The notes beneath the pieces are model-generated. The model did not search any database and was not told where the DNA came from. It worked only from the letters and a program-made list of their open reading frames with translations. From the sequence record PZ154897.1: a stretch of 64,000 nt of DNA; one strand, given 5' to 3'. Position numbers and translations under genes: made by a program. The number at the start of each line of letters is the position of its first letter. Position 1 is the first letter of the stretch. The stretch is from a phage. Below are positions 45,507 through 49,400 of the stretch, in pieces.

Positions 45507-45539
45507 ACCAAAAAGCCCCAACCTTTCGGTCGGGGCTAA
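45507..45539. repeat. 33-bp direct repeat, copy 1 (terminator module)
   Basis: accaaaaagccccaacctttcggtcggggctaa identical to 46050..46082. Confidence 0.8.
45514..45537 (-). terminator. rho-independent terminator downstream of the IP-like gene
   Basis: agcccc(g/a)acc stem with tttc/GAAA loop; minus-strand UUUUUGG follows. Confidence 0.6.
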
Positions 45540-45544
45540 GAATG

Positions 45545-46003
45545 TTATTTGATTTGTTTAGCAGACCAAATGCGGTCTTTAATAATTTTTTGGATGTCTT
45601 CAACATACTCTAGGTCATGAGCATGTGGATTATCTTTAAAACTATAAGCTCGCGCAAGTTTCTGGCCTTCGGTCTTAATTACCAAAAGTTCTTTAAGAAT
45701 TGCTTCATACCTAGAAATAATTCCTTTAGCAATATTTTTTTCTTGTGCTGCTTTAGGGTCAGCCTTAGGAGCAGGTTTACCAGAAGGTTTTTCGAAAGCC
45801 GCACCAGTAGCAACCAGGCTTTTCCAGGCGGTGGTAACATAGTTACCCACAAAGCCTTCAGCTCTCATATCGTCGTAGAACTTGTACCGAGATTCGTCAG
45901 AAGCATCTTTATAAGAATATTTACCAGCTTTAATAGCAGCAGTTGCTACAGCGCGAACATCTGAAGCGGATGCTTCATTTAAAAATTGAGCATATGATTT
46001 CAT
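45545..46003 (-). CDS. internal-protein-like ORF with capsid-targeting-sequence-like leader (MKSYAQFLNEA)
   Basis: 152 aa; N-terminal decapeptide resembles the T4 IP leader MKTYQEFIAE; Ala/Lys-rich; late promoter upstream; flanked by 33-bp repeats. Confidence 0.5.
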   Translation of the reverse strand: MKSYAQFLNEASASDVRAVATAAIKAGKYSYKDASDESRYKFYDDMRAEGFVGNYVTTAWKSLVATGAAFEKPSGKPAPKADPKAAQEKNIAKGIISRYEAILKELLVIKTEGQKLARAYSFKDNPHAHDLEYVEDIQKIIKDRIWSAKQIK

Positions 46004-46042
46004 CTTATTTCCTGTTTTAATTCGTGATTTAATATACTACTA

Positions 46043-46050
46043 TATTTATA
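46043..46050 (-). promoter_or_regulatory. late promoter TATAAATA
   Basis: tatttata on plus strand ~40 nt upstream of the 46003 start. Confidence 0.5.
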
Positions 46051-46082
46051 CCAAAAAGCCCCAACCTTTCGGTCGGGGCTAA
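46050..46082. repeat. 33-bp direct repeat, copy 2 (terminator module)
   Basis: identical to 45507..45539. Confidence 0.8.
46057..46080 (-). terminator. rho-independent terminator at the 3' end of the tRNA/stable-RNA transcription unit
   Basis: same hairpin as 45514..45537 followed by minus-strand U-run. Confidence 0.6.
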
Positions 46083-46084
46083 AG

Positions 46085-46397
46085 CCTTGCGGCAACCTTG
46101 TCGGGGTTCCACCTGCTAAGGCAAGTGTTTGTACGAAACGCCGGGATTCGAACCCGGTTATTAAGCAGTTGACGCTACTTAATATTTTTAAAAGGCCATA
46201 TCTCGACCATATCCGAACGTTCCGTCAAAAACGCTACTCGGCTTACGGCAAAGATATTTCCTCGAATCGATAATTCGGTGCGCCGTTTCTGCTGTGATGT
46301 AAGAGGGCATCAACAAATCATAAAGATTTATTAACGCAATTCCTTACCCAGGGAACATCAGTCCGACGACTTACCGGTAGCGACCCGGTTTCTTGTC
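46085..46397 (-). ncRNA. stable small-RNA region (candidate rnaC/rnaD-like RNAs); boundaries unresolved
   Basis: ~310-bp non-coding, relatively GC-rich tract downstream of tRNA-Arg with a T-arm-like CCGGGTTCGAATCCCGG element. Confidence 0.35.
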
Positions 46398-46474
46398 TGG
46401 TCGAGACAGAAGGATTCTAACCTTCAACCTACGGATTAGAAGTCCGTTGCTCTATACAATTGAGCTATGCCCCG
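46398..46474 (-). tRNA. tRNA-Arg (anticodon UCU), CCA encoded
   Basis: hand-folded cloverleaf: D-arm GCTC/GAGC, anticodon arm ACGGA-CUUCUAA-UCCGU, T-arm GAAGG-TTAGAAT-CCTTC; ends +/-2 nt. Confidence 0.75.
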
Positions 46475-46477
46475 TAA

Positions 46478-47143
46478 TTAAAATTTCATTTTTCGACCTT
46501 TAAACCATCCTTCTGGAATTGGGTCAGTTTTCTTAATACGTTTAGAAACTTTTTCATCTAATGAATGAATCCACATCATACCAAATTGGGAATTCTTTTC
46601 GCCCTGTTGGTGTTTATTTCTGGCGTGAGATTCTTTCATTTTATTAATAGTTTCAGGAGTATGGGTCTTACCCAAGAAAGATTTAATATTTAAAAATTTC
46701 TCTCTATACTTAGGATTATCCCAAAGCTGTTTAAACCTTTCTGAACCCATTTTACGATATTTTTCTTTAAGGTCTGGGTCGTTCTCAAATCTGGTTTTAA
46801 AAGCAGCAGCCCCTTTTAAGGAAGCTTCTTTCTTTTTATCCAAATATTCTTTAGTGTTTAAATGGTCCCAACCACCTTCACCACCTAATTTCAAATTATA
46901 AACATCAGGGCGCTTTAAAAACTCTTCAGTCACAATATTCTTTTCTGACTCAAACATAGAGGTTTTATCGTCAAAGAACTCTAATATTTCTTTAGAGAAA
47001 TTTTCTATACCATACTTGTCTTGGGCTCTTTTTAATAATTTACCAGAACCCATATATCCATCATCTAAATTTTCGGTAGAATGAGCGCCTATATAGATTT
47101 TATTATTAATTTTATTTGTTATTTTATAAGTGTAATGGAACAT
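46478..47143 (-). CDS. segB: GIY-YIG homing endonuclease in the tRNA cluster (segB-like)
   Basis: 221 aa; YTYKITNKINNKIYIGAHST...YNLKLGGEGG; paralog of 17840..18670; sits between tRNA subclusters as T4 segB does. Confidence 0.8.
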   Translation of the reverse strand: MFHYTYKITNKINNKIYIGAHSTENLDDGYMGSGKLLKRAQDKYGIENFSKEILEFFDDKTSMFESEKNIVTEEFLKRPDVYNLKLGGEGGWDHLNTKEYLDKKKEASLKGAAAFKTRFENDPDLKEKYRKMGSERFKQLWDNPKYREKFLNIKSFLGKTHTPETINKMKESHARNKHQQGEKNSQFGMMWIHSLDEKVSKRIKKTDPIPEGWFKGRKMKF

Positions 47144-47184
47144 AAATATCTCCTATTTCTAAGAGTATTTATGTTCCCAAAATA

Positions 47185-47256
47185 TGGCCCTGGGTGGAAT
47201 TGAACCACCATCTGGCGATTATGAGTCGCTTGCTTGAACCTTCCAGCTACAGGGCC
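47185..47256 (-). tRNA. tRNA-Ile (anticodon CAU, AUA-decoding type)
   Basis: hand-folded; anticodon loop CUCAUAA; T-arm GGTGG-TTCAATT-CCACC; acceptor GGCCCTG/CAGGGCC. Confidence 0.75.
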
Positions 47257-47263
47257 TTGATAT

Positions 47264-47335
47264 GCTGATTGACGGAATCGAACCGCCGACATCCTCATTA
47301 CAAGTGAGGTGCTCTACCTACTGAGCTAAATCAGC
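47264..47335 (-). tRNA. tRNA-Thr (anticodon UGU)
   Basis: hand-folded; anticodon arm CCTCA-CTTGTAA-TGAGG; acceptor GCTGATT/AATCAGC. Confidence 0.8.
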
Positions 47336-48141: not shown

Positions 48142-48143
48142 TA

Positions 48144-48527
48144 TCAGCCTTCATCAACAATAGTATGAGTATTGGCATTTACAATTTGCCACCAATCAAA
48201 GCGGTTGGAACCATAATCTGGTTTGTTTTCATTTTCTTTGATAATGTCACGGAGTTCATCTTCAGTGGCGGCTTTCGCGATTAAATCAGCATATCCACCA
48301 CGAGGATAATAATTATCACCTGCAAAAAGTAAAAAATTTGGTTTAATATTATTAAACTCTTCAAGAGTAATAACTTTTCCTGATGGTAGTTGAACAATCT
48401 CTACATATTTATATCCTAATTTTTGAGCAGCATCTACTGCTTCAAGCAAAGTATCATGAGCCCATCCAATTTGACAACCTGGCTTTTCAGATGGATTAGC
48501 CTGATAATCCGCGTACACTTTATACAT
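48144..48527 (-). CDS. hypothetical protein
   Basis: ORF trimmed to internal Met (MYKVYADYQANPSEKPGCQIGWAHD...). Confidence 0.45.
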   Translation of the reverse strand: MYKVYADYQANPSEKPGCQIGWAHDTLLEAVDAAQKLGYKYVEIVQLPSGKVITLEEFNNIKPNFLLFAGDNYYPRGGYADLIAKAATEDELRDIIKENENKPDYGSNRFDWWQIVNANTHTIVDEG

Positions 48528-48528
48528 T

Positions 48529-48714
48529 CTATTCACCTTTAGAAATTTTATCCATAACAATAGCGATTAAACCAATTAAAAATGCTACTACAAGTGAAAA
48601 CACATTTTCTGCTGTAGTTAATAATCCACATATAAATCCAACAAACATTGAAAAACTAAAAGCAGAAGCAGAAATTGCAATAGCAACATTTCGAATTAAT
48701 TCACATCGTTTCAT
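48529..48714 (-). CDS. small two-TM membrane protein
   Basis: 61 aa; VAIAISASAFSFSMFVGFICGLL and FSLVVAFLIGLIAIV. Confidence 0.45.
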   Translation of the reverse strand: MKRCELIRNVAIAISASAFSFSMFVGFICGLLTTAENVFSLVVAFLIGLIAIVMDKISKGE

Positions 48715-48737
48715 TTTATTCTCCTCAGTAATTGATA

Positions 48738-48772
48738 GGGTAATAGTATCACACTACTACCCAGAAGTAAAC
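48738..48772 (-). promoter_or_regulatory. early-type promoter, cassette copy 1 of 3 (TGATACTATTACC)
   Basis: minus-strand GTTTAC (48767-48772) and TGATACTATTACCC (48738-48751). Confidence 0.5.
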
Positions 48773-48775
48773 AAC

Positions 48776-49000
48776 TTATTCCGCTCCAGCAGCTTTCAAA
48801 AGCTTTTTAAGATTAACAGTGCCACGAGCAGAAAACGTGACTTTACCATCCTTTTCACTAATAGAGCCAGTTAACTTAGAAAGTTTATCGCTAGGAATTT
48901 TTTTAAAATCACTTAATGTACCATCAAAAGTTTTCGTAACAATTGGTAGTTCATCTTCATGTCTTTTAGCTTCATTGATAAATTCTTGATATGTTTTCAT
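48776..49000 (-). CDS. internal-protein-like ORF with capsid-targeting leader MKTYQEFINEA
   Basis: 74 aa from Met5 of the ORF-track product; leader matches the T4 IP consensus MKTYQEFIAE. Confidence 0.55.
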   Translation of the reverse strand: MKTYQEFINEAKRHEDELPIVTKTFDGTLSDFKKIPSDKLSKLTGSISEKDGKVTFSARGTVNLKKLLKAAGAE

Positions 49001-49030
49001 TTTGATTTCCATTTAGTTTTGTTTTGATAG

Positions 49031-49064
49031 GGTAATAGTATCACAACTAAACCACCGTGTAAAC
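49031..49064 (-). promoter_or_regulatory. early-type promoter, cassette copy 2 of 3
   Basis: minus-strand GTTTAC (49059-49064) and TGATACTATTACC (49031-49043). Confidence 0.5.
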
Positions 49065-49067
49065 AAT

Positions 49068-49340
49068 TTATTTTAAATAAATTGCATATTTTTTATAACC
49101 AGCCGTCTCGTGACGCAGACCTTTTTCATTAGCAAAGCGTTCAATATTATTAATTTGATTCTGATCAAGTTCTGAAATATCAAATACAAAAAAGTTTCGT
49201 TTATTTCCTAACGTTACATGATTCGTCAAATCAATGTTATAAAGATGATTTATATTATCAATCATAGTCTTAACAGATTTGCTAATTTTTACTTCTTCAT
49301 TAAGAGCAGATTCAACGATAAACTCTTTGAAAGTTTTCAT
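49068..49340 (-). CDS. internal-protein-like ORF with capsid-targeting leader MKTFKEFIVE
   Basis: 90-aa ORF; N-terminus fits the IP leader pattern. Confidence 0.5.
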   Translation of the reverse strand: MKTFKEFIVESALNEEVKISKSVKTMIDNINHLYNIDLTNHVTLGNKRNFFVFDISELDQNQINNIERFANEKGLRHETAGYKKYAIYLK

Positions 49341-49366
49341 TTTATTTTCCTAATTAATTTTGATGA

Positions 49367-49400
49367 GGTAATAGTATCACAACTAAAACCCCGTGTAAAC
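49367..49400 (-). promoter_or_regulatory. early-type promoter, cassette copy 3 of 3
   Basis: minus-strand GTTTAC (49395-49400) and TGATACTATTACC (49367-49379); shared upstream TTTTCACAAAGTTGTTTAC. Confidence 0.5.

Follow-up and report, generated by a model that had tools for sequence, protein, structure and literature searches.

Three internal-protein-type genes of a T4-like phage and a candidate third locus for capsid-targeted proteins

How many sites in a T4-like genome hold genes for the proteins that travel inside the phage head, and could small genes without an informative label belong among them? No factor of the phage encounters host immunity earlier than its injected internal proteins (IPs). 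The question is raised by three small open reading frames (ORFs) in a 64,000-nucleotide (nt) stretch of phage DNA (PZ154897.1), referred to here as the window. The window is a segment of a Tequatrovirus (T4-like) genome with the minus-strand gene order of T4, and the finding spans the "ipI locus" of T-even phages together with the region past the transfer RNA (tRNA) cluster. A sequence-only reading had proposed that these ORFs begin with capsid-targeting leaders and that each stands behind its own promoter cassette. All three are present on the minus strand where that reading had placed them: ORF A at 45545..46003, ORF B at 48776..49000 and ORF C at 49068..49340. The explanation somewhat favoured here, by analogy with T4, is that they are three IP-type genes whose products would be targeted to the capsid, processed by the prohead protease gp21, injected with the DNA and probably used to block host nucleases. 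Most of this is known biology, since a hypervariable T-even IP locus with promoter/stem-loop cassettes has already been described (Repoila et al. 1994, as summarized in PMC2839356). The new element, which sequence comparison makes plausible, is that the "hypothetical" family PHROG 2280, to which ORF A belongs, would be targeted to the capsid and encoded at a third locus, one that the model T-even phages lack.

The leaders are the common feature of the three ORFs, which start with MKSYAQFLNEA (ORF A), MKTYQEFINEA (ORF B) and MKTFKEFIVE (ORF C). The six frames of the window contain the motif MK[ST][YF].[EQ]F[ILV].E at these three places and nowhere else, and 200 shuffles never produced it; the leaders are therefore not due to chance. 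T4 IPIII and IPII start with MKTYQEFIAEA, and T4 IPI, which starts with MKTFKEF, is cleaved behind ITE19. For the IPIII leader, mutagenesis by amber suppression assigned residues 4 and 7 to targeting and residues 8 and 10 to processing, with L/I-x-E as the gp21 site (PMC9026906). The claimed match to the T4 capsid-targeting sequence (CTS) holds in all three ORFs, with an aromatic residue at position 4, Phe at 7, Leu or Ile at 8 and Glu at 10. The targeting residues are Y4/F7 in ORFs A and B, and F4/F7 in ORF C. The gp21 motif (L/I)-x-E, sought where the leader ends (residues 8-10; in IPI as far as residue 19), is found as LNE10 in ORF A, as INE10 in ORF B, and as IVE10 plus LNE15 in ORF C.

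The mature parts were expected to differ from the three T4 proteins, and they do: BLASTP similarity to T4 IPI, IPII and IPIII is limited to residues 1 to approximately 15, and beyond the leader none of the ORFs has BLASTP similarity to IPI, IPII, IPIII or Ip4-Ip7. After cleavage, ORF A is predicted to leave 142 amino acids (aa) of about 15.7 kDa with an isoelectric point (pI) of 9.4, ORF B 64 aa of about 6.9 kDa (pI 9.6), and ORF C 80 aa of about 9.3 kDa that are weakly basic (pI 8.0).

ORFs B and C lie between gene 57B and trna.4, the classic hypervariable ipI locus, which holds ipI in T4, Ip5-Ip9-Ip7 in RB32, Ip5-Ip6 in T6 and IpV-IpVI in PST. ORF C (90 aa; leader MKTFKEFIVE/S, the slash marking the predicted cut) is an Ip9-family internal head protein that matches PHROG 7673, "internal head protein", at E 9e-56. 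Its identity is 79-80% with Ip9 of RB15 and RB32 and 100% with the protein of phage ECO07P2, and the AlphaFold2 (AF2) model of ORF C predicts a small alpha/beta domain (mean pLDDT, the model's per-residue confidence score, 78). ORF B (74 aa; leader MKTYQEFINE/A) matches PHROG 8765, "internal virion protein", at E 6e-26. A mechanical reading of ORF B begins four codons earlier (MEIK-MKTYQ, 49012); the ATG at 49000 is preferred because homologues are 73-74 aa long and a GGAA Shine-Dalgarno-like motif stands before it. ORF B was found by tblastn in 108 phage records, many labelled internal virion or head protein, and its homologues of 73-74 aa include those of Mosigvirus-like coliphages and Klebsiella T4-like phages. 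By sequence, ORFs B and C thus fall into families that already carry an internal-protein annotation, and it is highly probable that both are packaged as IPs.

The Ip9 family also shows how such a protein may have arisen. The body of Ip9 (residues about 20-90) has 46-49% identity with small early-region ORFs of two siphoviruses from outside the T4-like group, M01 (Guernseyvirinae) and KS_A3 (Seuratvirus). In Escherichia phage M01 the homologue (2504-2722 of retrieved locus L007) has no leader and starts directly at the domain; the leaderless homologue in KS_A3 (2492-2716 of L008), which likewise starts at the domain, is labelled "internal head protein", presumably by transfer. Within the family itself, M1, K2, F7, I8 and E10 of the leader are invariant among 16 Ip9 sequences. 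Because the M01 and KS_A3 homologues lack the leader, Ip9 looks, as far as sequence goes, like a widespread small phage domain onto which a targeting tag was grafted in the T4 lineage. A fold match in BFVD (E 3e-6) additionally places an Ip9-like domain within a 535-aa viral protein, UPI0018AFBB59.

The promoter arrangement differs among the three genes. The claim that each ORF has its own promoter cassette stands for ORFs B and C, which follow an early-promoter cassette, and fails for ORF A, which follows a terminator and then a TATAAATA box. The cassette (family D1, 48 nt, four copies in all, each on the minus strand) consists of GTTTACA, a 17-nt spacer and TG-n-TACTAT, the form of a T4 early promoter. 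The copy before ORF C (49358..49405), seen in a promoter scan, has a weak stem-loop over its -10 box (fold -10.9 kcal/mol, z -1.7), and over its 3' half it is almost the same sequence as the cassette before T4 ipI. The reference copy, likewise seen in the scan, precedes ORF B at 49022..49069. A third copy (48730..48777) stands before trna.4 at the downstream edge of the ipI-type locus and has an 11-bp stem-loop overlapping its -10 box. The fourth, also found in the promoter scan, belongs to e.8, the next gene downstream of ORF A (45333..45380). The idea that such cassettes mediate the shuffling of IP genes comes from Repoila et al. 1994, as relayed in PMC2839356 and PMC4122927.

The second classical IP locus, between e and denV, carries no ip gene in the window; T4 has ipIII and ipII at this position. 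What stands there is one early-promoter cassette (41126..41185, minus strand) whose -10 box lies within a 19-bp perfect stem-loop (-30.1 kcal/mol, z -8.1). The stem-loops of the ipI-type locus are weak (z -0.6 to -1.7), that of this empty site is strong, and the e/denV junction looks like the footprint of an emptied IP locus. A TATAAATA box is also present in gene 1, upstream of 57A, at 50466-50473 (minus strand). This box could give late read-through of 57A, 57B, ORF C and ORF B and so supply IPs at the time of head assembly.

ORF A (152 aa; leader MKSYAQFLNE/A) belongs to PHROG 2280, a family of unknown function, and is equivalent to RB32ORF133c and RB68_138, to which it is 83% identical at the same map position. 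It lies between rnaC and e.8, and thus in neither the 57B-trna.4 nor the e-denV locus. As had been noted, the tRNA cluster sets it apart from ORFs B and C and terminator repeats stand on both sides of it. These bracketing repeats are real and 100% identical (family D6), with a length of 35 bp and not the 33 bp first given; each copy is a 10-bp GC-rich hairpin followed by a T run. The upstream copy (46048..46082, minus strand; terminator scan, fold -22.1 kcal/mol, z -4.2) serves as intrinsic terminator for the tRNA/rnaC transcript, and the TATAAATA box (46043..46050, minus strand) begins with the final 3 nt of this copy. This box has the T4 late-promoter consensus and lies 47 nt upstream of the ORF A start codon. 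The downstream copy (45505..45539, minus strand) terminates ORF A and is the sole copy present in T4. The complete unit, located downstream of the tRNA/rnaD/rnaC cluster, comprises 543 bp: terminator, TATAAATA, ribosome-binding site, gene and terminator.

Alignment of the window with T4 and RB68 reveals a clean 543-bp indel bounded by the repeat, with one terminator copy in T4 and the full unit in the window and in RB68. T4, T2, T6 and PST all lack the unit. The RB32 record describes its homologue as "flanked by 34 bp imperfect direct repeat". ORF A was found by tblastn in 512 phage records, and its label is uninformative (hypothetical, "Phage protein" or none) in all of the approximately 100 records among the matches listed. 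No record or paper was found that names RB32ORF133c/RB68_138 (PHROG 2280) an internal protein or notes its leader.

Comparison across genera provides the case for a functional ORF A leader. Eight loci were compared, from Tequatrovirus, a Jiaodavirus-like Klebsiella phage (our own attribution, as the record states only "Viruses"), Marfavirus, Tegunavirus, the unclassified MHG19, Winklervirus and Karamvirus. At least six genera of Tevenvirinae have full-length homologues, and the bodies are approximately 45-65% identical. The leaders of the family include MKSYAQFLNE, MKFKEFLAE, MITFNDILAE, MLEYSEFLKE, MLNFNEFLAE and MKPFSEFLNE. All eight loci keep an aromatic residue at position 4, Phe or Ile at 7, Leu at 8 and Glu at 10, and positions 1-3, 5, 6 and 9 vary. 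The leader is likely to be functional because the four conserved positions are those mapped in the IPIII leader for targeting and processing. An exhaustive hidden Markov model (HMM) search with ORF A returned 11 representatives only, all of them close family members or fragments. The suggestion that the family has two C-terminal domain types, as from domain swapping, was dropped: an intermediate homologue (P0030) links both, and the pattern looks like divergence.

Two further features recur in the family. In many homologues a second cleavage motif follows shortly after the first, namely LNEAVLNEA in most Tequatrovirus phages and INE16 in MHG19. Most Tequatrovirus homologues are 157 aa long and contain a 5-residue tandem duplication, FLNEAVLNEAS, that gives two gp21 sites (RB68 locus L002, about 5001-5060; proteins P0001-P0003); ORF A of the window lacks the duplication and has a single site. 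Judged from these sequences, a second motif would be easiest to explain if the protease acts there. Five of the eight loci, including those of RB68, the Jiaodavirus-like Klebsiella phage, MHG19 and Entb_43, have the TATAAATA box 33-48 nt before the gene, and CATAAATA stands upstream of the homologues in two further genera. In the Tequatrovirus phages whose flanks were examined, and in the one Jiaodavirus-like Klebsiella phage, the gene occupies the same position after the tRNA/stable-RNA terminator. Late transcription fits the needs of a cargo of head assembly.

PHROG 2280 may thus mark a third, unrecognised IP locus of the Tevenvirinae, encoding a late, capsid-targeted and gp21-processed protein in approximately 510 phages of at least six genera and not in T2, T4 or T6; confidence in this proposal is a little above even. 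Packaging of ORF A, taken as a separate matter, appears reasonably likely.

Several observations weigh against these interpretations. The Krisch laboratory considered IP genes confined to two loci (PMC2839356), and ORF A is outside both; Ips are likewise described as encoded in two loci by Silas et al. (2025, PMC12373910). The phages behind these two-locus statements do not carry ORF A. One TATAAATA box is not significant alone, as the AT-rich genome leads to an expectation of 11.6 in the window and 13 are present; its recurrence at the same position upstream of ORF A homologues is significant, unlike the single box. ORF A keeps its position and its sequence from genus to genus, whereas the known anti-restriction IPs are hypervariable. 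ORFs B and C have only early-type promoters directly upstream, and their late supply would have to come by read-through or from long-lived protein, an assumption also made for the ip genes of T4. There, ipI, ipII and ipIII stand behind the same early-promoter cassettes, again with no late box immediately before them.

The searches for fold, function and virion proteins count on the same side. Foldseek searches of the PDB with the ORF A and ORF C models gave no significant match (E at least 0.08), a sequence profile search of the PDB gave none, and Pfam and NCBIfam yielded no informative match to ORFs A, B and C. The mature domains resemble neither IPI*, IPII or IPIII nor any solved structure in sequence or fold, and an anti-restriction role is therefore proposed purely by analogy. 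The literature search found no virion proteome of a phage that carries these genes, ORF A included, and the papers on fPS-2/65/90, LC53 and Kc304 contain no mass spectrometry. In favour of the IP explanation, IPII-like and Ip4-like CTS proteins were detected by mass spectrometry in virions of a related genus, Jiaodavirus, and are abundant, according to supplementary material of PMC13119998. The accessible portion of the data for Jiaodavirus ValerieMcCarty holds no PHROG 2280 peptides, but these phages are not among the ORF A tblastn matches and the result is uninformative.

The main rival for ORF A is a structural or DNA-binding role. It is kept in consideration because of the Lys/Pro/Ala-rich linker of ORF A and its conservation across genera, a pattern unlike that of hypervariable effectors. 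Under this explanation ORF A would be targeted to the capsid yet have no anti-defence function; as a conserved accessory of the head, it would be a histone-like DNA-condensing protein or a helper of the core or scaffold, packaged or consumed as the head matures, and ORFs B and C would be ordinary variable IPs. The constant position of the gene after the tRNA/stable-RNA terminator, the full-length homologues in at least six genera and a late-promoter box of the kind used by structural genes would all suit such a protein. The AF2 model predicts an all-alpha protein with long helices (mean pLDDT 76), and the mature part is basic with a linker, like DNA-associated IPs, that is conserved in composition and not in sequence. 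An internal LKE at residue 105 could be a second gp21 cut, and slower head assembly has been reported for IPIII mutants (PMC9026906). IPIII, however, has this assembly phenotype and nevertheless inhibits GmrSD (PMC12373910), so that the two roles are not mutually exclusive. ORF A is moreover dispensable, being wholly missing in T4, T2, T6 and PST, and hhalign relates it to neither of the core proteins gp67 and gp68 (probability <1%). Its presence does not offset the absence of IPII and IPIII either: RB32 has ORF A together with Ip4, T6 has neither, and a role as their substitute, also contradicted by T2 and PST, which have IPs at the second locus without ORF A, was ruled out. We regard a purely accessory head function as unlikely, though worth serious consideration.

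A leader that is a relic or a coincidence would lead to a different picture, in which ORF A is a late, cytoplasmic, non-virion protein that is neither packaged nor cleaved and only ORFs B and C are true IPs. The uninformative labels in the matches listed, the lack of an assigned function for PHROG 2280 and the location outside both recognised IP loci agree with it, as do the departures of the ORF A leader from canonical MKTYQEF at positions 3, 5 and 6. No proteomic detection of the ORF A family was found; the one virion proteome examined, however, is of phages outside the set of ORF A matches and does not bear on the point. Against a relic, the four mapped positions are kept through about 50% divergence of the remaining protein in at least six genera. 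The tandem cleavage motif, or a second I/L-x-E, in many homologues is hard to explain without processing by the protease, and late expression fits head assembly. This alternative is judged improbable.

It is very improbable that ORFs B and C work inside the host cell like any other early protein, expressed from their own early promoters and with leaders irrelevant to function, since although their nearest promoters are early-type and the Ip9 domain, leaderless in unrelated siphoviruses, can evidently work unpackaged, the T4 ip genes share cassettes without a late box and yet encode abundant virion proteins (PMC9026906), the Ip9 leader has invariant residues, and the siphovirus homologues lack exactly the leader segment, which points to its addition for a T4-specific purpose.

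The preferred explanation, that ORFs A, B and C are injected IPs, would proceed as follows if the three proteins behave as those of T4. The leader of about 10 residues, with its aromatic residue 4 and Phe-7, would bind the gp22-based scaffolding core, and the protein would be enclosed as the prohead shell forms. The gp21 prohead protease would then cut after (L/I)-x-Glu10 and free the mature proteins, which would remain with the packaged DNA and be ejected alongside it into the next host. Inside that host they could act before any phage gene is expressed. The genes for gp21 and gp22 (21 and 22) are outside the window and are, we presume, carried by the complete genome, as they are by complete Tequatrovirus genomes; the window is 94-98% identical to such genomes over the IP region. 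The cassettes before ORFs B and C would both drive expression and give homology for the swapping of IP genes between phages. ORF A would be a separate, late-transcribed cassette at a third site downstream of rnaC, made when heads are built, and its exact excision, by recombination of one terminator copy with the other, would leave the state seen in T4, T2, T6 and PST.

As to what the mature proteins might do, the injected T4 proteins Ip1, Ip2 and Ip3 each inhibit a different GmrSD enzyme, without cross-protection (PMC12373910). Among internal proteins, such relief of restriction for glucosyl-hydroxymethylcytosine phages is known for these three only. Because each of these inhibits one GmrSD-type enzyme, a similar anti-restriction role is the most likely function of the three proteins by analogy. 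The most likely action would be to block nucleases directed against glucosyl-hydroxymethylcytosine DNA, as T4 Ip1-3 do for different GmrSD variants. For any given one of ORFs A, B and C, identity as a type IV restriction inhibitor is at best an even prospect. Packaging, cleavage, injection and target would all follow the T4 model, and the sequence features, homologies, indel structure and cross-genus conservation are direct observations.

The surroundings of the three genes follow T4. Gene 1 (50110-50823, minus strand) is followed by 57A and 57B in the T4 order. Gene 57B (49413..49868, minus strand; synteny with T4) belongs to the Acb1 anti-CBASS phosphodiesterase family (Pfam PF23474, E 2.6e-60) and forms the upstream flank of the ipI-type locus. 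Counter-defence genes cluster at this locus, given that an Acb1-family gene stands directly upstream of the IP genes. On the 3' side of 57B come a small variable block and then trna.4, trna.3 and trna.2, all on the minus strand. Between trna.2 and rnaD are eight tRNA genes on the same strand, interrupted by a gene for a segB-like GIY-YIG homing endonuclease (46478-47143, minus strand), as in T4. The cluster ends with the stable RNA genes rnaD (46277-46396) and rnaC (46132-46270), which together occupy 46132..46396 on the minus strand and are 94% and 98% identical, respectively, to annotated T4 rnaD and rnaC. Rfam has no family for either, and both were placed by alignment to the T4 annotation. 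Downstream of rnaC, e.8, e.7 and the following genes continue in the T4 order on the minus strand.

The tRNA complement differs among T4, T2, T6, RB68 and the phage of the window. The tRNA at 47185-47256 (minus strand) is called Met by ARAGORN (anticodon CAT) but stands in the position of T4 tRNA-Ile (CAU). That T4 tRNA reads AUA once it is modified with lysidine. The Met call is probably wrong, given this position and the reading of AUA after modification.

A megablast search with 45300-49500 matched 955 phage records, nearly all from T4-like coliphages, and the best record had 97.7% identity over 86% of the query. No single record covers more than 87% of this 4.2-kb region. The closest relative differs for each ORF, being SP21535 for ORF A (98.7%), EP01 for ORF B (95.9%) and ECO07P2 for ORF C (100%). 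Because the best match is a different phage for each ORF and no record covers more than 87%, the stretch 45545-49340 appears from these comparisons to be a recombinant mosaic.

The finding that all three T4 IPs are specific GmrSD inhibitors (2025, PMC12373910) makes uncharacterised Ip families obvious inhibitor candidates. The window gives three candidate injected counter-defence proteins, none of which resembles Ip1-3. If the proposal for PHROG 2280 is true, the absence of ORF A from T2, T4 and T6 would explain why the family is still labelled "hypothetical" after fifty years of T-even work and by current pipelines. ORF A, conserved where the Ip genes are hypervariable, would then be an injected effector of broad action or else a new component of the head that associates with DNA. 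Recognition of PHROG 2280 as a CTS family would correct the annotation in about 500 phage genomes, many of them therapy candidates, and would extend the IP repertoire past the two supposed loci. The leaderless Ip9-like genes of siphoviruses suggest that T4-like phages recruit ready-made effector domains by means of a 10-residue tag; if so, this tag would be a simple search key for injected effectors.

In comparison with known systems, the nearest are the T4 IPs themselves. ORFs A, B and C share with them a leader of about 10 residues, MK(T/S)(Y/F)x(E/Q)F(I/L)xE, followed by a gp21 site, and their predicted mature products are likewise small and non-acidic (pI 8.0-9.6). ORFs B and C are also like T4 ipI in being located in the 57B-trna.4 locus behind the same early-promoter cassette. 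For the mature domains of all three ORFs, in contrast, no resemblance to IPI*, IPII or IPIII was detectable in sequence or fold, and ORF A differs further in its map position, its late-promoter box and its conservation across genera where the T4 IPs are hypervariable. ORF C is a full-length, 90-aa homologue of Ip9 of RB15, K3 and RB32 at the same locus (Repoila et al. 1994; GenBank Z35082, NC_008515). Its leader is of the IPI type (MKTFKEF) and not MKTYQEF, and its neighbour is a PHROG 8765 gene and not Ip5 or Ip7. Unlike most Tequatrovirus copies of PHROG 2280, ORF A of the window is without the 5-residue duplication of the cleavage motif.

The regulatory arrangement resembles the PeSL cassettes (Arbiol et al. 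2010, PMC2839356; Comeau et al. 2014, PMC4122927), in that repeated regulatory cassettes flank accessory genes and bound indels, and in that the empty e/denV site keeps one cassette with a strong stem-loop. Unlike PeSL, the cassettes of the window are based on T4 early promoters and their stem-loops are weak in the ipI-type locus, and the repeat that bounds ORF A is an intrinsic terminator and not a promoter cassette. Inhibitors of GmrSD (type IV restriction) were reportedly also the subject of a 2007 study by Bair et al. Although ORFs A, B and C have no homology to the GmrSD inhibitors Ip1, Ip2 and Ip3 (Silas et al. 2025, PMC12373910), the action expected of them by analogy would be the same, that of a protein delivered with the DNA which neutralises a nuclease directed against modified DNA.

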